This document shows, piece by piece, positions 3,927 through 27,700 of a DNA stretch of 64,000 nt. This stretch comes from a virus. The stretch covers positions 27,464-91,463 of IMG/VR virus record IMGVR_UViG_3300014202_000478. One strand, given 5' to 3'. The notes under the pieces were generated by a model. It was not told where the DNA came from and did not search any database. It saw only the letters and a program-made list of their open reading frames with translations. The position numbers and the translations under genes are program-made. Position 1 is the stretch's first letter; the number at the start of each line of letters is the position of its first letter.

Positions 3927-4010
3927 TGGCCGAGGCGAGACTTGAACTCGCACGCCCTTACGGGCACTAGCTCCTAAGGCTAGCGTGTATGCCAATTTCA
4001 CCACTCGGCC
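3927..4010 (-). tRNA. tRNA-Leu(UAG), class II
   Basis: GGCCGAG/CTCGGCC acceptor, CTAGC-CT TAG GA-GCTAG anticodon arm, long variable arm, GTTCAAGTC T loop. Confidence 0.95.
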
Positions 4011-12775: not shown

Positions 12776-13061
12776 TATACTTCTCCAGATACTCAGTGAG
12801 TTCCTTTAGCCTGTTCTTCTGAAATTCTAATTGATCTTCATGTGCTTTCTTTTGGCCTTGCATATATTCGAGCAAACTACTAACTGCCTCTTCCTTGGTT
12901 GCACTGCCTTTGGAAGAATAATGCCAACCACCAACACTTGTAGTCGCTAGCCACGGTTTGTCCAGTGGCCAAGACTCTACTTCACAGTCATTCCAATATG
13001 TCTTTCGACGGACATATATGCCATTAGGAAGGGTTTCATCATCTGTGAATGCTTCAAGCAT
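12768..13061 (-). CDS. hypothetical protein
   Basis: 97 aa ORF coupled to aceA. Confidence 0.6.
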   Translation of the reverse strand: MLEAFTDDETLPNGIYVRRKTYWNDCEVESWPLDKPWLATTSVGGWHYSSKGSATKEEAVSSLLEYMQGQKKAHEDQLEFQKNRLKELTEYLEKYNG

Positions 13062-14287
13062 CAGAATTGCTCCGCTTCGGTTGACTCTTTAAGAGCCGTT
13101 AGTTTGGACCCTATGGTTTCCGCAACCATATCAAAATACCCTACGCCAACTTCCCTTTGGTGCTTAACCGCTGTATATCCTTGATCTTGTAAATCAAACT
13201 CCTTCTCCTGCACATCCACATAAGCTTCCATATCTCTACGGTTGTATTCATAAGCCAAATCAAACATACCTTGATTTAGAACATGGAACCCAGCCAATGT
13301 TATAAACTGGAACTTATAGCCCATCGCCCCTAGCTCTTTCTGGAAATCGAATATTTGTTTTTCATTTAGCTTTTTCTTCCAATGGAAACTTGGAGAACAA
13401 TTATAGGCTAATAGCTTGCCAGGATACTTGGCGTGAATGCCTTCTGCGAACTTTTTGGCTTCTTCCAGGTCAGGATGGCTGGTTTCACACCACAGCAGAT
13501 CGGCATAAGGAGCGTAGGCTAACCCCCTGGCAATAGCCATGTCAATGCCGCCAGTGATATTACAAAATCCTTCTTCGGTTCTCGCACCCTTGACGAAAGG
13601 TTTATCAATATCATCTATATCTGAAGTTAGAAGTTTAGCTGAGTCAGCATCTGTGCGTGCGATAATGACTGTTGGCACATTGAGAACATCAGCGGCAAGA
13701 CGTGCAGCTACTAGGGTTTTAATGAAATGAGAGGCAGGTATTAGTACCTTGCCTCCCAAATGTCCACACTTTTTGGCCGATGATAATTGATCTTCAAAGT
13801 GTATGCCTGCTGTTCCTGCTTCTATCATCGCCTTTGTTAGTTCAAAGGCGTTTAGCGGTCCACCAAAGCCAGCTTCAGCGTCTGCCACGATTGGCACCCA
13901 ATAGTCAGTGGTAATTTTGCCTTCCATCCACTGAATTTGGTCAGCACGTCTTAAACAGTTATTGATTCTACGCACTAGATTGGGAACACTATTGACAGCG
14001 TATAGAGATTGGTCTGGATACATTTGCATTGAGTCATTATTGTCGGCGGCGACTTGCCAACCAGAACAATAGATTGCTGGTAATTTAGCTTTGGCCATTT
14101 GCATAGCCTGATTGCCTGTTACCGCTCCCAAAGCATGAACATAAGGCTTGTCATGCAACCTTTCCCAAAGTTTCTCTGAAGTTAATCTCGCTAAGCTGTG
14201 TTCTTCGACAAAAGAACCTTGAAGTTTTCTAACCTGATCTATATTGTAAGGACGCTCAACACCATGCCAACGGGTTTGTGTTTCCAT
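13061..14287 (-). CDS. aceA: isocitrate lyase
   Basis: [38 protein letters not shown] catalytic loop, [17 protein letters not shown]. Confidence 0.97.
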
Positions 14288-15408: not shown

Positions 15409-15492
15409 TAGCCAAGGTGGGAGTCGAACCCACACACCCTTAACGGGTACTGGATTTTGAGTCCAGCGCGTCTGCCATTCCGCCACTTGGCC
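15409..15492 (-). tRNA. tRNA-Leu(CAA), class II
   Basis: GGCCAAG/CTTGGCT acceptor; CTGGA-CT CAA AA-TCCAG; long variable arm. Confidence 0.95.
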
Positions 15493-18446: not shown

Positions 18447-18521
18447 TGACCACCGTGGGATTCGAACCCACACATTCCACGTTCTGAGCGTGGCGACTCC
18501 TGCCAATTGGTCTAGGTGGCC
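18447..18521 (-). tRNA. tRNA with Leu anticodon CAG and short variable loop
   Basis: GGCCACC/GGTGGTC-A; CCACG-CT CAG AA-CGTGG; variable loop AATGT; 75 nt. Confidence 0.9.
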
Positions 18522-18787
18522 CTATTTTTCTTCATCGAATCACCCGTTGCATTACGATGATCCTTAATCTGCTTGTGATAATCTGGAATATCATCGTCGG
18601 CATGACAAGTAGTGCTTACACTAATTACTTTCCAACCATCATCCCACACACCTTCGCTGTCACGCAGTTTGAGGAACTTATTCAAGACAGCAAATTCCTC
18701 TGGAATATAACTAACTTGTTCTGAGTACGATGTTTCAGAATGCTTTTTCCGCATCTTGCATTGTCTGTAATAAACTGTCTTGCTCAT
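18512..18787 (-). CDS. hypothetical protein
   Basis: 91 aa; stop lies inside the 5' end of the tRNA. Confidence 0.65.
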   Translation of the reverse strand: MSKTVYYRQCKMRKKHSETSYSEQVSYIPEEFAVLNKFLKLRDSEGVWDDGWKVISVSTTCHADDDIPDYHKQIKDHRNATGDSMKKNRAT

Positions 18788-19448
18788 ATATTCTCAATTC
18801 AATCTTCCCGTTATCTACTACTAGGTATGTTGGCGAAGATTCAGTCCAACAGCCACTATTATAATAATCTTTATCCTCTTCCGCAAGATGAGTGTGCCCA
18901 CAACACACAAAATCGCATCTTTCTTTTTCTTTATGCTTACGGGCCAACCCTTTAATTCGGTCAGCACACCGCAGGAACGTTTTGGAGTTGTGTTTGGCTA
19001 ATTTAGCCAGGTAAAAACTCCCATCTAGTTTCTGTAGGAACCAGTATATCACATCTCCAAACCATGTTAGGATTGGATGTTCACTCAAGAAATCATCGTA
19101 TATGTCTCCGTGGAAACATAAAACCTGTTTCCCACCTGATTCGAAAATAAATTCGTCAGTATAATGAACCCCTATCAAATGGGCGATGTATTGTGCTGGT
19201 CCATGAGCATCATGGTTGCCCCTAATCCAAATTACTTCAATGGTGTCGGAAACTTTCCTTATAGTAGATAGGATTTTCCAGTGCCACTTGTGTAATCGGG
19301 AGTCGAAATTCTCGAAAACGTCACCGTTCAGGATCAGTTTCTTTGTTTCTATTTCTTTGTTTTGTATTTTTTCTAGGAAATTAACCAGCGACTTTGCTTG
19401 ACAGTTATCAGCACCAATATGTAAATCGGAAATAATGATTGCATCCAT
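18735..19448 (-). CDS. metallophosphoesterase (LpxH/UDP-2,3-diacylglucosamine hydrolase-like)
   Basis: SDLHIG, NGDVFE, RGNHD, FHGD, GHTH, YNSGCW. Confidence 0.88.
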   Translation of the reverse strand: MDAIIISDLHIGADNCQAKSLVNFLEKIQNKEIETKKLILNGDVFENFDSRLHKWHWKILSTIRKVSDTIEVIWIRGNHDAHGPAQYIAHLIGVHYTDEFIFESGGKQVLCFHGDIYDDFLSEHPILTWFGDVIYWFLQKLDGSFYLAKLAKHNSKTFLRCADRIKGLARKHKEKERCDFVCCGHTHLAEEDKDYYNSGCWTESSPTYLVVDNGKIELRIYEQDSLLQTMQDAEKAF

Positions 19449-19506
19449 ACTAAGTATTTACATTATTAGTCCCTTCGTATATGTTAATTTTCAGAGAAGA
19501 TTTCAG

Positions 19507-19587
19507 TGGCCAAGGTGGGAGTCGAACCCACAATCCCGAAGGAACAAGTTTCTAAAACTTGCGCGTATACCGTTTCGCCACAAGGCC
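19507..19587 (-). tRNA. tRNA-Leu(UAG), class II, with two U.U acceptor mismatches
   Basis: GGCCTTG/CTTGGCC; CAAGT-TT TAG AA-ACTTG; long variable arm. Confidence 0.85.
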
Positions 19588-19696
19588 ATAAAGATCGACT
19601 AGCAGGTGTCACGCCTTTTGATACCGCCGATCAGAATATCCGCCGCTCATTCTGGTTGTCATAGCTAGATGAACTTAAACCTCTTTGGGTAGCCAC

Positions 19697-20188
19697 TTAC
19701 ATATCCATATGTAAAGGAGGATCGCTCACCGCTCGCTCGACCAGCCCTTCGTTCGCGGAACTTGCGTTTTCGCCCCTGCAATGCTCACTGTCCGCTACGA
19801 CCGTTCCTTTTAAATCTCTTTTTTGGGAAGGACTTAACCTTCTAATTTTGGTGTCAGAAGTTAAACAAATTGAAGCTCCATCATTCCAGATTTTCGAATT
19901 TGTCTCAAAAGCTTCAACAATTTTTCTTTCTTCTAGCTCCGCATTACCAAAAACTGCAAATTTTCCACCAAAACTACCAGCTACTATAAATGGGTTATTT
20001 CGGTCTATTTTAACTTTTGTGCGTCTTATTTCCAAGTGAGCAAAGTCGAGTGTGGTCCAAACGTACTTCCACGGCTGGTCATTAAGCCGAGTGTACTTTT
20101 TAGGCCATTTTATAACTTCAAGCCCACAGAAATGCCACTCCTGTAGTGGCATTTTTAAGAGCCAATAGTCCAATTCTTCGAAAAACAT
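19697..20188 (-). CDS. hypothetical protein
   Basis: Starts MFFEELD 3 nt after the tRNA-Ser 3' end. Confidence 0.6.
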   Translation of the reverse strand: MFFEELDYWLLKMPLQEWHFCGLEVIKWPKKYTRLNDQPWKYVWTTLDFAHLEIRRTKVKIDRNNPFIVAGSFGGKFAVFGNAELEERKIVEAFETNSKIWNDGASICLTSDTKIRRLSPSQKRDLKGTVVADSEHCRGENASSANEGLVERAVSDPPLHMDM

Positions 20189-20191
20189 AAG

Positions 20192-20278
20192 CGGAGGGTG
20201 TAGGATTTGAACCCACGGTCCCCTTGCGGGGACTCTAGTTTTCAAGACTAGCGCAATCGGCCACTCTGCCAACCCTCC
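20192..20278 (-). tRNA. tRNA-Ser(UGA)
   Basis: GGAGGGT/ACCCTCC-G; CTAGT-CT TGA AA-ACTAG; long variable arm. Confidence 0.95.
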
Positions 20279-20313
20279 AGCAATTTCACACCCCGTTAGA
20301 CATATATAACAGT

Positions 20314-20904
20314 ATGCTAAACTTTAGGGGGTGGTTTATGGAGACTTTCAGCGTACCAAAGTCGCATATAAAAGTCAAGTTGCCTTCTGCTAAACAACCC
20401 AAAAACTTTTCCTGTGGGGCTTCCGCTTTAAGGGCTATCGCAGTCCATTTTAACGTCGGTCCTAACAACGAACAATTCTATATAGACAAGTGTAACACAA
20501 CTTATAAAGATGGTACACACCCAAAAGATATTATTCGTGTTGCCCGTGAACTTGGCCTAACCGTAAGGTCTAAGTCCAAAATGTCCATCAAAGACCTACA
20601 TGAGTATCTTGATGACGGTATTCCTGTTGTCTGCTCCATCCAAGCATGGGGCGATCAGAAAAAATATCCCGACACCGACCACAGCGGGCATTATGTCGTC
20701 GCCATCGGCTACACCAATGACAAAATCTATTTCATGGACCCGTCAATTAAAGGCCACCGTGGATTCCTGCCTAATGACGAATTTATCGAACGCTGGCACG
20801 ATGAAGAAGCTGATGGCACCAAACTCAATCGCTATGGAATCGCCATCTGGAATCCCACAGCAATTAAAAAACAACATTTGAACAAAGTCAAAAAGATTCA
20901 ATGA
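20314..20904 (+). CDS. C39-like cysteine peptidase with capsid-targeting-like N-terminus
   Basis: QPKNFSCGASAL (Cys), GHYVVAIGY (His), FMDPS (Asp); starts MLNFRGWFME. Confidence 0.85.
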   Translation: MLNFRGWFMETFSVPKSHIKVKLPSAKQPKNFSCGASALRAIAVHFNVGPNNEQFYIDKCNTTYKDGTHPKDIIRVARELGLTVRSKSKMSIKDLHEYLDDGIPVVCSIQAWGDQKKYPDTDHSGHYVVAIGYTNDKIYFMDPSIKGHRGFLPNDEFIERWHDEEADGTKLNRYGIAIWNPTAIKKQHLNKVKKIQ

Positions 20905-21134
20905 TAGTGTTCGGGCTTACGTCGATCCGAACGCTTTAACTTCATGATGGCCGACCTATAGCAATCCAACCAATATTCGTGTTGGAAGTTGTCAGGATTC
21001 CAGCCACTGAGAATCTTTTTGATGTAATCGTCCCACTTCATCTTGTTCTTGGCACAATTATCATCCAAAACTCGTTCTTCAAAAACCGTTGTTAGTTCAT
21101 CAAGGATATCAACTAGGGGTATTTTCTTGCTCAT
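20898..21134 (-). CDS. hypothetical protein
   Basis: MSKKIPLVDIL...; in array run. Confidence 0.55.
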   Translation of the reverse strand: MSKKIPLVDILDELTTVFEERVLDDNCAKNKMKWDDYIKKILSGWNPDNFQHEYWLDCYRSAIMKLKRSDRRKPEHYH

Positions 21135-21375
21135 TTTTATTTCCAATATAATTACCGTCGTCGTCCCAATCGTCATCGTTTCTTGGCTTGACTATCATCA
21201 ATACTAATTTGTCTCCGCACCACACAGGAGCGCGAAGCGTCGTCCATTTTTCATGTGTGTATTTTGTGTTCAATTGAAGGTATAAGTCTTCTAGGGAATC
21301 TGCACAAAGCACTTCTGAATCTATGCGTTTTCCTAGTTCTTTCAATTCTTTAAGTGTAATTGGTTCCCAACTCAT
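21109..21375 (-). CDS. hypothetical protein
   Basis: TAATG coupling to upstream ORF. Confidence 0.55.
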   Translation of the reverse strand: MSWEPITLKELKELGKRIDSEVLCADSLEDLYLQLNTKYTHEKWTTLRAPVWCGDKLVLMIVKPRNDDDWDDDGNYIGNKNEQENTPS

Positions 21376-21647
21376 TACCAACAATCCTCTTCATATTCAT
21401 TGCGCTGTGAAGCATAGTAGTCTTCCCATGCTTCCTTTTCGTATTTCGCTTCTAGCTCTCTATCTCTGATTTCTTGCAGTGATGGATAGCCATTGGCTTT
21501 CCTGTCCCTGCCAGGGTTAATCAGTTTTGAAAGCTGTCGTTCTGGATCGGTTGCATGAGCGTCCCCGTAGTAGAACTCATATTTGCATTCTGGACAATAA
21601 TCTCTGCGGGGGTCATTACCTAAATTCGGATGGTCGCAAAAATCCAT
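21375..21647 (-). CDS. small Cys-motif hypothetical protein
   Basis: AGGAG RBS just after tRNA; MDFCDH...YCPEC. Confidence 0.65.
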   Translation of the reverse strand: MDFCDHPNLGNDPRRDYCPECKYEFYYGDAHATDPERQLSKLINPGRDRKANGYPSLQEIRDRELEAKYEKEAWEDYYASQRNEYEEDCW

Positions 21648-21661
21648 TATTAAACTCCTAG

Positions 21662-21736
21662 TAGCACGGAAGGGATTCGAACCCTTACTGCCCACGTTTT
21701 AAATGTGGTGACTCCTGCCAGTTGGTCTACCGTGCC
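21662..21736 (-). tRNA. tRNA with Leu anticodon UAA and short variable loop
   Basis: GGCACGG/CCGTGCT-A; CCACA-TT TAA AA-CGTGG; variable loop GCAGT; 75 nt. Confidence 0.9.
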
Positions 21737-21752
21737 ATAAGTGGCCCTAGTC

Positions 21753-21929
21753 TTAACTCAGTATTACTAAATCGTTGCCCATATTGTCAGGTTTTGTATC
21801 CTTTTTAGTCGCGTCGTTAATTGCCTGGAAAAATCCTTGCATCTGCTCGTTAATATGTTCAACAGCTTCAATCTCTTCCTGACTCCAGCCAGCATCTTGA
21901 TACATTTTCCGCAATTCGTCTTTTGTCAT
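21753..21929 (-). CDS. small hypothetical protein (58 aa)
   Basis: ATG 2 nt after tRNA discriminator; MTKDELRKMYQDAGWSQEEIEAV... Confidence 0.55.
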   Translation of the reverse strand: MTKDELRKMYQDAGWSQEEIEAVEHINEQMQGFFQAINDATKKDTKPDNMGNDLVILS

Positions 21930-21931
21930 AG

Positions 21932-22019
21932 TGGCCTTGGCGGGATTCGAACCCGCACCCTCTTACGAGGACAACGTTCTCAACGTTGCGCGTTTACCTG
22001 TATGTTACACCACAAGGCC
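21932..22019 (-). tRNA. tRNA-Leu(GAG), class II, enlarged D loop
   Basis: GGCCTTG/CAAGGCC-A; CAACG-TT GAG AA-CGTTG; D region TAACATACAGGTAA. Confidence 0.88.
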
Positions 22020-22023
22020 ATAG

Positions 22024-22104
22024 TGTGGTAGGTGGGACTTGAACCCACACCCCTTTCGGGACACGCCCCTCAAGCGTGCGCGGCTGCCATTACGCCACTA
22101 CCAC
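22024..22104 (-). tRNA. tRNA-Leu(GAG), class II
   Basis: GTGGTAG/CTACCAC-A; CACGC-TT GAG GG-GCGTG; long variable arm. Confidence 0.93.
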
Positions 22105-22420
22105 ATGTTTTTCTTCGCTTCGTCAAAAAATATCTTCGAGCATTCAGACAGGTGCGTTTTTGTATATCTTTCTCCTGTCTTTATCCAGAAGAAATTGTAA
22201 ATTTCTCTAATGGCTTGCACCAAGCCATCCTCGGTCAACTCACCTCTGTAAGCTGCCAAGCGAAAACTTGGTCAGCCATATTCAGGGCATTGTAGTCCTT
22301 GAGTTAAAGGAAGCCTATAGCCATCCCTCCAAGCCCAACATCGCGGATTGTTCCATTCCTGAATCCGCTTTCCAACTACAATTAGTTCTGTAGGTGTCAT
22401 TTAACCTCCATAGGAAAAGG

Positions 22421-22600
22421 TTATATATCGTATGCTTCCCATTTCTTGTTATATTCTGCTCGCCATACTGAGTATCGTTGTTTTGGACCACGATATCCTA
22501 GTCGCTCTTTATTACGGATTTTGAATCCACATTCTGTGACCATTTTCCTGCGAACGAACTTATAGAACCCAGGATGGTCTAATATTCCATATTTATTCAT
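22421..22600 (-). CDS. small basic hypothetical protein
   Basis: ATG 2 nt after tRNA discriminator; MNKYGILDHPGF... Confidence 0.55.
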   Translation of the reverse strand: MNKYGILDHPGFYKFVRRKMVTECGFKIRNKERLGYRGPKQRYSVWRAEYNKKWEAYDI

Positions 22601-22602
22601 AG

Positions 22603-22677
22603 TAGCACGGGTGGGATTCGAACCCACACTGTCCACGTTCTAAGCGTGGCGACTCCTGCCAATTGGTCTACCGTGCC
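22603..22677 (-). tRNA. tRNA with Leu anticodon UAG and short variable loop
   Basis: GGCACGG/CCGTGCT-A; CCACG-CT TAG AA-CGTGG; variable loop ACAGT; 75 nt. Confidence 0.9.
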
Positions 22678-22852
22678 GTTCTTCTTCTAACTGCTTGCGT
22701 AATTTCGCAATTCTTAACCGCAAGCAATCCACACAAGTCACCTGTTCATCGACATAACTAAGCACTACTTGATCGTGGCCACTAATACCATACATTTTAC
22801 CGCAAAGAGCCATCAAGTCACTGCCCATGCCAGCATGAACTAATCCGTCCAT
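22640..22852 (-). CDS. small hypothetical protein (CxxC)
   Basis: 70 aa; 3' end reads 38 nt into the tRNA. Confidence 0.5.
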   Translation of the reverse strand: MDGLVHAGMGSDLMALCGKMYGISGHDQVVLSYVDEQVTCVDCLRLRIAKLRKQLEEERHGRPIGRSRHA

Positions 22853-23229
22853 ATTCTATACCCCGTTGGTTTACCGTGCCGATCATACTTCGTCCAACCT
22901 ACCTGCCTACAAAACCAATTCCAAACCTTTTTTCTCCAAGGACGCGAGAAATCCATAGGATAACCGTCTGCGTCCAAAGTTGCTCTATACCTTTCTGTCT
23001 CACGGTTATGTTCTGCTAGTTCTTCTGGATGCGTTTCCCAATATTCTCTTGACCGCTTTATATTCTCTGACTCGGCTTCCACCATTACTTTGACACACTC
23101 GCTGTCACGATTCTTTTCACATTCAGGACAGAAAGTAAAACTAAGGTGGCCATCCCACCAGGACCAACTTTCGCCTTCTAGTTTAACTCTCTTGCATAAA
23201 TCGCAATTCATTGTCCATATATCTTCCAT
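22840..23229 (-). CDS. hypothetical protein with CxxC pairs
   Basis: CDLC and CPEC; TAATG coupling. Confidence 0.65.
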   Translation of the reverse strand: MEDIWTMNCDLCKRVKLEGESWSWWDGHLSFTFCPECEKNRDSECVKVMVEAESENIKRSREYWETHPEELAEHNRETERYRATLDADGYPMDFSRPWRKKVWNWFCRQVGWTKYDRHGKPTGYRIWTD

Positions 23230-23393
23230 TAATACCTCATGTCACTCTTGTCGCCGCCCTTATTCAAACGAGCAAGTATTGCTTCTGGAAATTCCTTGGT
23301 AGGTTTACCCCACCATTTATTCATTTTGCGATCCCATATTTGCCAGCCCTTGGGATTAGTTCTTACGCAATATCTAGCGTTTCTTTTGCCCAT
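23229..23393 (-). CDS. small basic hypothetical protein (54 aa)
   Basis: MGKRNARYCVRTNPKGWQIWDRKMNKWWGK...; TAATG coupled to next ORF. Confidence 0.55.
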   Translation of the reverse strand: MGKRNARYCVRTNPKGWQIWDRKMNKWWGKPTKEFPEAILARLNKGGDKSDMRY

Positions 23394-23541
23394 AATCAAA
23401 GTTGCGATATTTGATCCTATAGTATACCTTTCTAGCCTTCTCTTCCAGGTAATTGTATCCTTTAATTACCCAATACATCGCTAAAAGAGAATAGAGATAG
23501 AATATACTACGCCACGTCATTCGTTCATATCTGTTTTCCAT
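23374..23541 (-). CDS. small membrane-associated hypothetical protein
   Basis: ATG 2 nt after tRNA-Ser; hydrophobic stretch IFYLYSLLAMYWVI. Confidence 0.5.
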   Translation of the reverse strand: MENRYERMTWRSIFYLYSLLAMYWVIKGYNYLEEKARKVYYRIKYRNFDYGQKKR

Positions 23542-23543
23542 AG

Positions 23544-23627
23544 CGGTAGGTGCGAGAGTTGAACTCACAAAACCTTTCGGTTTGTCCCGCTTCAAACGGG
23601 GTGGGCCTGCCAATGCCCAAACCTACC
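23544..23627 (-). tRNA. tRNA-Ser(UGA), atypical D arm
   Basis: GGTAGGT/ACCTACC-G; anticodon loop TT TGA AG; long variable arm. Confidence 0.88.
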
Positions 23628-23630
23628 AAG

Positions 23631-23717
23631 CGGAAGGTGTCGGAGTCGAACCGACAAGCCCCTTTCGGGACTACTCGTTTTCGAAACGAGCCGACTTGCC
23701 AATGTGCAAAACCTTCC
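23631..23717 (-). tRNA. tRNA-Ser(CGA)
   Basis: GGAAGGT/ACCTTCC-G; CTCGT-TT CGA AA-ACGAG; long variable arm. Confidence 0.9.
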
Positions 23718-23720
23718 AAG

Positions 23721-23801
23721 TAGTCTAGGTGGGAGTCGAACCCACAATCCCGAAGGAACGAATTTTTAAGACTCGCGCGTATACCGTTTCGCCACAAGAC
23801 C
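23721..23801 (-). tRNA. tRNA-Leu(UAA), class II
   Basis: GGTCTTG/CTAGACT-A (one U.U); CGAGT-CT TAA AA-ATTCG; body similar to tRNA at 19507. Confidence 0.9.
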
Positions 23802-23807
23802 ATGAAG

Positions 23808-23894
23808 CGGAAAGTGTGGGAGTCGAACCCACAAGCCCCTTTCGGGACTACTTAGTTTCCAACCAAGCTGACTTGCCAATGTGCAAAACTTTCC
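23808..23894 (-). tRNA. tRNA-Ser(GGA)
   Basis: GGAAAGT/ACTTTCC-G; CTTGG-TT GGA AA-CTAAG; long variable arm. Confidence 0.9.
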
Positions 23895-23895
23895 G

Positions 23896-24054
23896 TTACT
23901 TATCCTTACAAAAATACCATATTACAAATCCTATAGCAACAAAAACTAATGTAAAAGCCGCTGCCTGCAAAAACATTTCTGGTGTAATCGGCGGATTATC
24001 ATAATGGTTCTTACCAGGCCCGCTTAATGCCTGATTTATAATTACAGTATCCAT
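23896..24054 (-). CDS. small single-pass membrane protein (52 aa)
   Basis: ATG 2 nt after tRNA; TM segment AAAFTLVFVAIGFVIWYF. Confidence 0.6.
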   Translation of the reverse strand: MDTVIINQALSGPGKNHYDNPPITPEMFLQAAAFTLVFVAIGFVIWYFCKDK

Positions 24055-24056
24055 AG

Positions 24057-24131
24057 TAGCCACCGTGGGATTCGAACCCACACTGTTACCCTTTTGAGAG
24101 GTACGACTCCTACCAGTTGGTCTAGGTGGCC
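24057..24131 (-). tRNA. tRNA with Leu anticodon CAA and short variable loop
   Basis: GGCCACC/GGTGGCT-A; TACCT-CT CAA AA-GGGTA; variable loop ACAGT; 75 nt. Confidence 0.9.
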
Positions 24132-24726: not shown

Positions 24727-24772
24727 AAAAAAAAAGAAACCCGCCGTGACCTTTCAGCCACGGCGGGTTTCT
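24727..24772 (-). terminator. intrinsic terminator / attenuator upstream of tRNA array
   Basis: AGAAACCCGCCGTGGC-TGAAAG-GTCACGGCGGGTTTCT followed by a T run; begins about 19 nt after the leader-peptide stop. Confidence 0.9.
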
Positions 24773-24791: not shown

Positions 24792-24875
24792 CTATTCGGT
24801 CCATCTTCCTGCGCTCGACAACGAGAGCGATAATGAATAATAACTGGACAGTAGGTTAACGGAGAAAGTATGCAC
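24792..24875 (-). CDS. Leu/Ser/Tyr-rich attenuator leader peptide (27 aa)
   Basis: AAAGGAAAC RBS, GTG start; MHTFSVNLLSSYYSLSLSLSSAGRWTE*; 14 consecutive L/S/Y codons; not in ORF track. Confidence 0.8.
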   Translation of the reverse strand: MHTFSVNLLSSYYSLSLSLSSAGRWTE

Positions 24876-26632: not shown

Positions 26633-27700
26633 ATGAGTAACATTCTTCTTTTTTCTGATGTGCATATTCATGCGCACAAAAAATCGTTCGACCGCCTGAA
26701 GGACTGTTTGACTACGCTGGATTGGGTTTTTGAAACAGCCAAACAACATAAAATCAAAGACATTGTATTCGCTGGTGATCTTTTCCAAGATAGGCAAAGG
26801 ATCGACGTAGCGACATACAGCATGACTTTTGATGTTCTTTTCAAGCATTGTGACGGCAGTATCAATCTATGGTTGTTACTAGGCAACCACGACATGTGGT
26901 ATCACGACAAATGGGATATCAGTAGTGTCCTTCCATTCTCTGCATTGCCTAATGTAACAGTAATTAACAAAGCTTGCACATTAGAAATCCTTGGTAAAGA
27001 AATTGATTTCTTACCCTATGTCCGTGACCCCATCGAACATCTTAAAGAACTAGAGAATATCGCTAAACAACGCAAGGGCTTAAAAACCTTAGTTGGGCAT
27101 TTGGCGGTTCATGGAGCAGAGTTGAATACTCTGTATCATACTCTTGCTGACGTTGTTTTAGAGCATGATGGTGACATGGTATGCGTAGGACCAGAGTTGT
27201 TCAAAGCATGGGACAAGGTGTTTTTAGGACACTATCACGGCGCTCAACAAATTGAAAATCTTGAATATATTGGTTCGCCACTCCAATTAACTTTCGGAGA
27301 AGCATTTCAGGAAAAACATATAATTGTTTATGACCTGAAAACTGGCAAACAAGAATATATCACCAATGATTTCAGTCCTAAACATTTGATATTATCTGAA
27401 AGTGATGTTCATAACCATGATGTTGAAAATAACTTTGTGAGGTTGAACGTTGAGAATCGTAAATCTATTGACATTCTTGACTTGAAGAAAGAAGTGCAGG
27501 GCAGAAAGCCAAGCACTTTAGAAGTGGTACAAAAGCCGAAGAAAGAACAGAAACAAGTTGTAGAAGATGCTAAGTCCATCTTGAATAAGGAAGACGAGAT
27601 GCTCGAAACTTATGTCAAAGAAGTGGACACAGGCGATTTGGAAAAACCGTATCTGGTTGATATCGGCAAGTACATTTGTACTCAATCGACAGTTGCATAA
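26633..27700 (+). CDS. Mre11/SbcD-like nuclease (T4 gp47-like)
   Basis: SDVH, AGDLF, GNHD, GHYH, YIGSPLQ; TTGTGC-N17-TATAAT 6 nt upstream of ATG. Confidence 0.92.
   Translation: MSNILLFSDVHIHAHKKSFDRLKDCLTTLDWVFETAKQHKIKDIVFAGDLFQDRQRIDVATYSMTFDVLFKHCDGSINLWLLLGNHDMWYHDKWDISSVLPFSALPNVTVINKACTLEILGKEIDFLPYVRDPIEHLKELENIAKQRKGLKTLVGHLAVHGAELNTLYHTLADVVLEHDGDMVCVGPELFKAWDKVFLGHYHGAQQIENLEYIGSPLQLTFGEAFQEKHIIVYDLKTGKQEYITNDFSPKHLILSESDVHNHDVENNFVRLNVENRKSIDILDLKKEVQGRKPSTLEVVQKPKKEQKQVVEDAKSILNKEDEMLETYVKEVDTGDLEKPYLVDIGKYICTQSTVA

Follow-up and report, generated by a model that had tools for sequence, protein, structure and literature searches.

Leucine tRNAs with a short variable loop in the class II tRNA array of a huge-phage fragment: four members of a widespread and apparently undescribed phage family

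The 64,000-nt stretch of viral DNA under study (positions 27,464 to 91,463 of IMG/VR record IMGVR_UViG_3300014202_000478; hereafter the window) carries four 75-nt tRNA genes with the leucine anticodons CAG, UAA, UAG and CAA in which the long variable arm is replaced by a loop of only 5 nt, i.e. leucine tRNAs of type I (class I) shape. These genes are probably functional leucine tRNAs and belong to a mobile lineage found in phages and in phage-like bacterial tRNA arrays of many phyla, as judged from their cloverleaves, from the covariation and anticodon usage of their homologues and from the leucine identity elements that they retain. According to a 2023 review, leucine tRNAs are long-armed everywhere but in animal mitochondria, and full-text literature searches brought up no account of short-arm tRNALeu from either phages or tRNA arrays; the lineage therefore appears to be a widespread phage family that has apparently gone undescribed.

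The four short-arm genes are real tRNAs, and chance is ruled out. Both ARAGORN and the Rfam model RF00005 call all of them on the minus strand; the Rfam scores are 47.3-56.6 bits (gathering score 29; E 1.6e-9 to 5.6e-7), model positions 1-71 are matched in every case, and ARAGORN gives cloverleaves. In these, the acceptor stem has 7 bp, the D stem 3 bp (GAC/GUC) with a loop region of 12 nt, and the anticodon and T stems 5 bp each; the 5-nt variable loop is AAUGU in the CAG tRNA, GCAGU in UAA and ACAGU in both UAG and CAA. The D arm common to the four reads TAGACCAA(T/C)TGG(C/T)AGGAGTC. The two programs thus agree with an earlier note, made from the sequence alone, which had described four 75-nt genes with a 5-nt variable loop, a shared D arm and four different leucine anticodons. 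A stem-loop variable region of more than 10 nt, the mark of class II architecture, is found in none of them. The A73, the A14-A15 and the U ending the variable loop that the same note had pointed out can be read from all four cloverleaves; U8, A14, A15, U48 and A73 are present in 4/4, with the pairs U8:A14 and A15:U48, as are, by sequence, G18G19 and A20a of the D loop. In the acceptor stems, G1:U72 is found in three of the four and G2:U71 in one.

Searches with the 20-nt pattern of this D arm matched 33 IMG/VR contigs as well as 20 loci of bacterial genomes or metagenome-assembled genomes (MAGs), the 14 listed among these 20 being dense tRNA arrays (5-33 genes) of Gemmataceae, Myxococcales, Blastocatellia and others. 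A leucine anticodon is present in 60/60 carriers of the D arm, with leucine making up 21% of the 859 tRNAs in those loci, figures which, like the other family statistics, are drawn from loci chosen for containing one member and do not give a share of phage leucine tRNAs; all six leucine anticodons are used by the family, and none other. When 28 members are aligned, 97.7% of the stem cells are paired and 16 of the 20 pairs show compensatory changes, the observed pairing being reached by 0/500 shuffles and not approached by any slid register. G47, U48 and A73 are invariant in this alignment, though they lie outside the search pattern. Furthermore, among 130 unique short-arm leucine tRNAs, a set which includes members with diverged D stems, A73 is kept in 126, U8 in 126, A14 in 124 and A15:U48 in 111.

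BLAST with one tRNA of the window matches at least 170 GenBank phage records, in which the gene is labelled tRNA-Leu where annotated. The hosts of these phages are chiefly Mycobacterium (76), Streptomyces (64) and Erwinia (14), the remaining matches being phages of Acinetobacter, Gordonia, Rhodococcus and Pseudomonas, cyanophages and a Microcystis phage. The short-arm Leu(UAG) of the window shares 80-85% identity with the copies in Streptomyces phages, and Erwinia phage Hena2 has three tRNA-Leu, all of 77-78 nt, next to a tRNA-Ser of 93 nt. T5 proper, considered as a further example, was rejected, its Leu(UAG) being an 85-nt, long-arm tRNA.

The family is conserved across genomes of very different composition. 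The loops of its tRNAs do not vary among phages whose GC content ranges from 30 to 71%, and the short-arm Leu(CAA) of the window has an identical copy in a related phage record (L018). As regards the PVC host guessed at in the earlier note, near-identical copies do occur in Gemmataceae tRNA arrays, but these have 66-68% GC, versus 42% for the window's phage. Between the short-arm Leu(UAG) of the window and a CAG copy from a MAG contig of 71% GC the identity is 95%, so that the module either moves, or stays constant, across very different hosts. Among the 76 Ser and 28 Tyr tRNAs of the family loci, one odd case is the only one with a short arm, as would be expected if a tRNA can lose the arm only when its synthetase accepts the loss.

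Some peculiarities of the family are recorded here in their own right. In the CUN-reading leucine tRNAs of the family loci, position 37 is A in 63/71 short-arm genes and G in 12/25 long-arm genes, so that the short-arm tRNAs with A37 would escape the usual methylation of G37. The G1:U72 pair occurs in 48/130 short-arm versus 7/39 long-arm leucine tRNAs. In dense tRNA arrays on the Gemmataceae contigs L037, L038, L040 and L050, the type I Leu(CAG) of the window has counterparts of 83-85% identity, beside 69-nt Met, Ile and Ala tRNAs in which a GC-rich hairpin takes the place of the normal D arm.

As to the amino acid, the four short-arm tRNAs would almost certainly carry leucine, given the identity elements they share with substrates of known leucyl-tRNA synthetases (LeuRS). 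The Escherichia coli LeuRS needs A73, A15-U48, G18G19 and A20a, can dispense with both the anticodon and the long arm, and still charges minimal tRNAs from which the arm has been removed (reviewed in PMC9976931), in agreement with the determinants, and with the indifference to the anticodon, that the earlier note had given as established. Every element of the bacterial leucine identity set that can be tested by sequence is present in the four. Because A73 and the D/T-loop core are kept, the short-arm tRNAs would be charged with leucine by a host LeuRS that ignores the anticodon and the long arm and reads A73 together with that core (U8:A14, A15:U48, G18G19, A20a). They would then read the codons CUG (CAG), UUA/UUG (UAA), CUA and, by wobble, other CUN codons (UAG), and UUG (CAA). 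The suggestion of the earlier note that these are armless leucine tRNAs which stay chargeable is thus well supported, on comparative grounds, by a covarying family restricted to leucine anticodons, by the conserved LeuRS determinants and by a leucylated precedent in Streptomyces coelicolor.

Judged by its described features, that precedent, a tRNALeu(CAA) of type I, is the closest known case. It likewise combines a leucine anticodon with a 5-nt variable loop (ACAGC, versus ACAGU, AAUGU or GCAGU here), is leucylated efficiently by its own LeuRS (Fan et al. 2019, NAR, PMC6614811), shares the cell with long-arm tRNALeu while being charged by the single LeuRS, and needs for charging the U8:A14 pair that is also present in the four tRNAs of the window. 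However, it is one chromosomal isoacceptor of one genus, described as rare, whereas four isoacceptors are found here in a phage operon, and A73, near-invariant in the phage family, is not the key element in S. coelicolor. The next closest case is the type I tRNALeu of animal mitochondria, which also lacks the long arm and is identified via A73 and A14 (PMC9976931); mitochondrial tRNAs, however, are degenerate and are served by a dedicated LeuRS, whereas the elbow and T loop of the phage tRNAs are fully canonical, and a bacterial LeuRS has to serve them. With the class II tRNALeu of bacteria the tRNAs of the window share the discriminator, the Levitt pair, the 3-bp D stem, the A14 A15 Y U G18 G19 Y A loop and the leucine anticodons, but they are without the 12-17-nt variable arm, and in their family A37 replaces G37 (63/71 CUN readers) and G1:U72 is frequent.

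Several observations weigh against reading the four genes as functional leucine tRNAs of a phage lineage. Thermodynamic (minimum-free-energy) folding gives three arms and not the weak 3-bp D stem, a result that tells little, and the D arm is no closer to that of long-arm leucine tRNAs than to those of several class I isotypes. The S. coelicolor type I tRNALeu is not charged by the E. coli LeuRS (PMC6614811), so that acceptance depends on the enzyme, and the LeuRS evidence is that of the E. coli and S. coelicolor enzymes. The locus was found in no RNA run and only in two DNA metagenomes, with small shares. Moreover, the record covers about 21% of the genome, and further leucine tRNAs or a phage synthetase could therefore sit in the remainder; a phage-encoded LeuRS (PF13603) is absent from the fragment and from its 595-kb relative, introduced below. 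Separately, an origin by plain deletion of the arm from a long-arm leucine tRNA was considered and finds no support in D-arm similarity.

The short-arm genes stand in an array of class II tRNAs. Of the 18 tRNA genes detected in the window, 17 were called by ARAGORN; these share the minus strand and have no anticodons but those for Leu, Ser and Tyr. The eighteenth, a second Leu(GAG), was added by Rfam. None of the tRNAs of the array, the short-arm four included, encodes CCA, which would thus have to be added after transcription. Long-arm copies for UAG, CAA and UAA, announced in the earlier note, were located (table 1), so that both the short and the long form are kept for these three anticodons in the window's phage, as they are for UAG and UAA in L018; a further long-arm Leu(UAA) lies outside the window, within the 103-kb record. 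No long-arm CAG copy is present in that record, where the short-arm gene is the only CAG tRNA. Acceptor-stem U-U mismatches were seen in two long-arm genes with 12-nt variable arms, two in Leu(UAG) at 19507-19587 and one in Leu(UAA) at 23721-23801.

The four short-arm genes appear to be transcribed together with 15 long-arm Leu, Ser and Tyr tRNAs, which would make the unit a dedicated class II operon. Upstream of the array a short leader open reading frame (ORF) is followed by a terminator hairpin and preceded by a promoter-like site (table 1). The leucine codons of the leader (CUA, CUG, UUA, CUC and UUG) match the five leucine anticodon types of the array, the four short-arm ones included, and homologues of the leader are found ahead of the class II arrays of L018 (2291), LR756511.1 (L055, about 19116), L029 (11914) and L031 (2087), following the pattern xHTFSxS or FNFSVS and then a run of L/S/Y. 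From its sequence, the combination of promoter-like site, leader and terminator looks like an attenuator sensing charged class II tRNAs: with a Leu/Ser/Tyr-rich leader peptide and a strong terminator, the short-arm tRNAs would be made when decoders of Leu, Ser and Tyr are scarce.

Table 1. Short-arm and long-arm leucine tRNA genes and leader elements in the window (positions are those of the window).
Feature	Position	Strand	Remarks
Type I tRNA-Leu(CAG)	18447..18521	-	RF00005 52.9 bits; family model R1 95 bits; A73, G2:U71, loop AAUGU
Type I tRNA-Leu(UAA)	21662..21736	-	RF00005 47.3 bits; R1 86.7 bits; A73, G1:U72, A31-C39 mismatch, loop GCAGU
Type I tRNA-Leu(UAG)	22603..22677	-	RF00005 56.6 bits; R1 96.5 bits
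Type I tRNA-Leu(CAA)	24057..24131	-	RF00005 49.5 bits; R1 90.6 bits
Long-arm tRNA-Leu(UAG)	3927-4010		tRNA call
Long-arm tRNA-Leu(UAG)	19507..19587	-	81-82 nt, 12-nt variable arm; ARAGORN, Rfam, cloverleaf; apparent operon of the short-arm genes
Long-arm tRNA-Leu(UAA)	23721..23801	-	ARAGORN, Rfam, cloverleaf; apparent operon of the short-arm genes
Long-arm tRNA-Leu(CAA)	15409..15492	-	ARAGORN, Rfam
Two long-arm tRNA-Leu(GAG)	21932..22104	-	21932-22019 (Rfam only) and 22024-22104
Leader ORF	24792..24875	-	27 codons, 14 consecutive Leu/Ser/Tyr codons; upstream of the tRNA array
Terminator hairpin	24735..24772	-	17 bp, with T run; separates the leader ORF from the array's first tRNA
Best promoter-like site	24974-24947	-	TTGACA-16-TAAGAT; just upstream of the leader ORF

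The record from which the window was taken is a single 103-kb virus contig encoding a tail sheath, a baseplate hub, ribonucleotide reductase (RNR), CTP synthase, SbcCD and isocitrate lyase. CheckV puts its completeness at 21%, and a contig of 623,153 bp encodes a CTP synthase and an RNR identical to those of the record, which is thus a fragment of a huge phage with a genome of roughly 0.5-0.6 Mb. Among named phages, the uncultured LR756511.1 (595 kb; CTP synthase identity 76%) is its nearest relative; it has 60 tRNAs in total. Forty-eight of these are class I-type and lie away from the class II array; the tRNAs for the remaining amino acids are all at 176-291 kb, while a separate array at 434-437 kb holds five Leu, two Tyr and four Ser tRNAs, with about 140 kb between the class I-type and class II arrays and two more long-arm leucine tRNAs at 427.7 kb and 6.3 kb. 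Because the record is 21% complete and the relative keeps its arrays apart, the Leu/Ser/Tyr-only set of the window is best taken as a class II operon on a fragment, and the idea that the phage encodes class II tRNAs only was rejected, in view of that completeness, of the identical proteins on the 623-kb contig and of the 48 class I-type tRNAs of the relative. The class II array of LR756511.1 includes a long-arm Leu(CAG), whereas the record of the window has CAG in the short-arm form only.

Further observations concern the surroundings. A calcineurin-like metallophosphoesterase (18735-19448, -) and, on the opposite strand, a C39-family cysteine peptidase (20314-20904, +) are embedded among the tRNA genes, and the isocitrate lyase encoded at 13061-14287 (-; Pfam ICL, E 2.4e-93) is an unusual auxiliary metabolic gene. 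At four places (22598-22603, 24052-24057, 21927-21932 and 23538-23543) the small ORF that comes next starts with its AUG right at the tRNA end N73-C-U (...ACUAUG...); 3'-end cleavage of those tRNAs would yield nearly leaderless mRNAs, an arrangement that resembles mitochondrial tRNA punctuation. Two tRNAs of LR756511.1, at 290999 (L060) and 179588 (L056), are candidates for altered decoding: one is class I-shaped, 75 nt long and bears the Ser anticodon CGA, the other has the anticodon CUA (amber-suppressor type).

The explanations that compete with ordinary leucine decoding fare unequally. The earlier note had offered, as its alternative, that the tRNAs are mischarged and recode leucine codons. 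In this view some synthetase that is not LeuRS would charge them, and leucine codons would be recoded, in part or entirely, during infection; the class I shape, unusual for leucine, as well as the atypical acceptor stems (G1:U72 in three, G2:U71 in one), could be quoted in its favour. This was examined by aligning the CTP synthase and RNR of the phage with about 90-100 homologues each and considering the columns that are at least 80% conserved: the codons of the phage align with leucine in 39/40 such columns (CTA 11/12, CTG 3/3, TTA 15/15, TTG 10/10), and leucine makes up 72-87% of the homologue residues at those codons. Since CTA, CTG, TTA and TTG thus align with leucine where the proteins are conserved, recoding is rejected as a change of coding, and the proposal of the earlier note is contradicted. 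It is also hard to reconcile with a family that uses all six leucine anticodons and nothing else and conserves A73, A14 and A15:U48. Alanyl-tRNA synthetase requires G3:U70, seryl-tRNA synthetase (SerRS) requires the long arm, and most other synthetases read the anticodon; the short-arm leucine tRNAs have no G3:U70 and no long arm, and acceptance by synthetases other than LeuRS is, from these features, unlikely. On the whole, mischarging is very improbable. Hardly any credence is left for the view that the genes are decaying, non-functional remnants of class II leucine genes that have suffered an arm deletion, to which the missing CCA, the redundant long-arm copies and the A31-C39 mismatch in one gene might point: stems with compensatory covariation in 16/20 pairs (28 sequences) and loops invariant at 30-71% GC are not those of decaying genes, CCA is missing from all tRNAs of the array, and for CAG the record holds no long-arm gene that could stand in.

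A different kind of question is why the arm was lost, and here an answer may be compatible with ordinary leucine decoding. The arm loss could be a counter-defence, by which armless leucine tRNAs escape a toxin or nuclease of the host, or of a rival, that uses the long variable arm; we regard this as doubtful, though not far-fetched. Its model is MenT3, a member of the DUF1814/AbiEii abortive-infection family, which needs the long variable loop of tRNASer, is weak on class II Leu and Tyr tRNAs, and accepts tRNAAla as a substrate once a long variable loop has been grafted onto it (PMC11162799). Defence-resistant phage tRNAs (PMC10264068) are likewise extra phage-borne copies structurally unlike those of the host, although in those cases the change is in the anticodon loop, at the recognition site of a known nuclease, whereas here the whole arm is lost and no cognate nuclease is known. 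At the locus itself, the keeping of both forms for UAG, UAA and CAA (UAG and UAA in L018) is a weak hint that they are not equivalent, the conserved Leu/Ser/Tyr leader points to a repeated scarcity of class II tRNAs, and the GenBank matches are, with strong sampling bias, mostly actinobacteriophages, whose hosts are rich in tRNA toxins. However, the 15 long-arm Leu, Ser and Tyr tRNAs of the operon would remain exposed to an arm-directed attack, which would still stall translation because Ser and Tyr tRNAs cannot shed the arm, and many phages have, within an ordinary full set, no leucine tRNA but the short form, as befits a general-purpose adaptor. To our knowledge, no arm-specific nuclease for tRNALeu has been described. 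Scans of the ORFs between the tRNAs with Pfam and PHROGs found no tRNA nuclease, ligase or kinase; an AbiEii-type gene (PF08843) is absent from the fragment and from the 595-kb relative, and no tRNA-directed enzyme was found in the neighbouring ORFs, the fragment or that relative. Nuclease evasion, which the earlier note had coupled to chargeability, may therefore be called a legitimate idea given MenT3, without direct support at the locus. A more elaborate version, which we hold to be a little less probable still, is that the Leu/Ser/Tyr operon is a sensor-controlled rescue kit, the leader detecting that charged class II tRNAs are being lost to a host toxin which targets the long variable arm (MenT/AbiEii-like or another nuclease) and the type I leucine tRNAs being the toxin-proof part, spread by phages across phyla; if this is true, phages in general would use the missing arm of tRNALeu as a counter-defence. 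Portability might equally account for the wide distribution: leucine is the sole class II family whose synthetase would tolerate loss of the arm, and an armless leucine tRNA, not being mistaken for tRNASer or tRNATyr, should be free of mis-serylation and mis-tyrosylation in a new host.

The yield of the window itself is the more modest one of four further family members in a class II operon of a huge phage that appears to be leader-controlled. For the family, it appears that short-arm tRNALeu, with a near-invariant D arm and six anticodons, is common in phages and mobile tRNA arrays, where the S. coelicolor exception had been published as rare; such genes were already deposited, unremarked, in more than 150 GenBank phage records, which include phages of Erwinia, Mycobacterium, Streptomyces and cyanobacteria. 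The family would also offer compact, SerRS-proof leucine adaptors for engineering. Finally, it raises a question of LeuRS specificity, as the E. coli LeuRS rejects the type I tRNA of S. coelicolor, and yet there are enterobacterial phages that carry leucine tRNAs of the short-arm form only.

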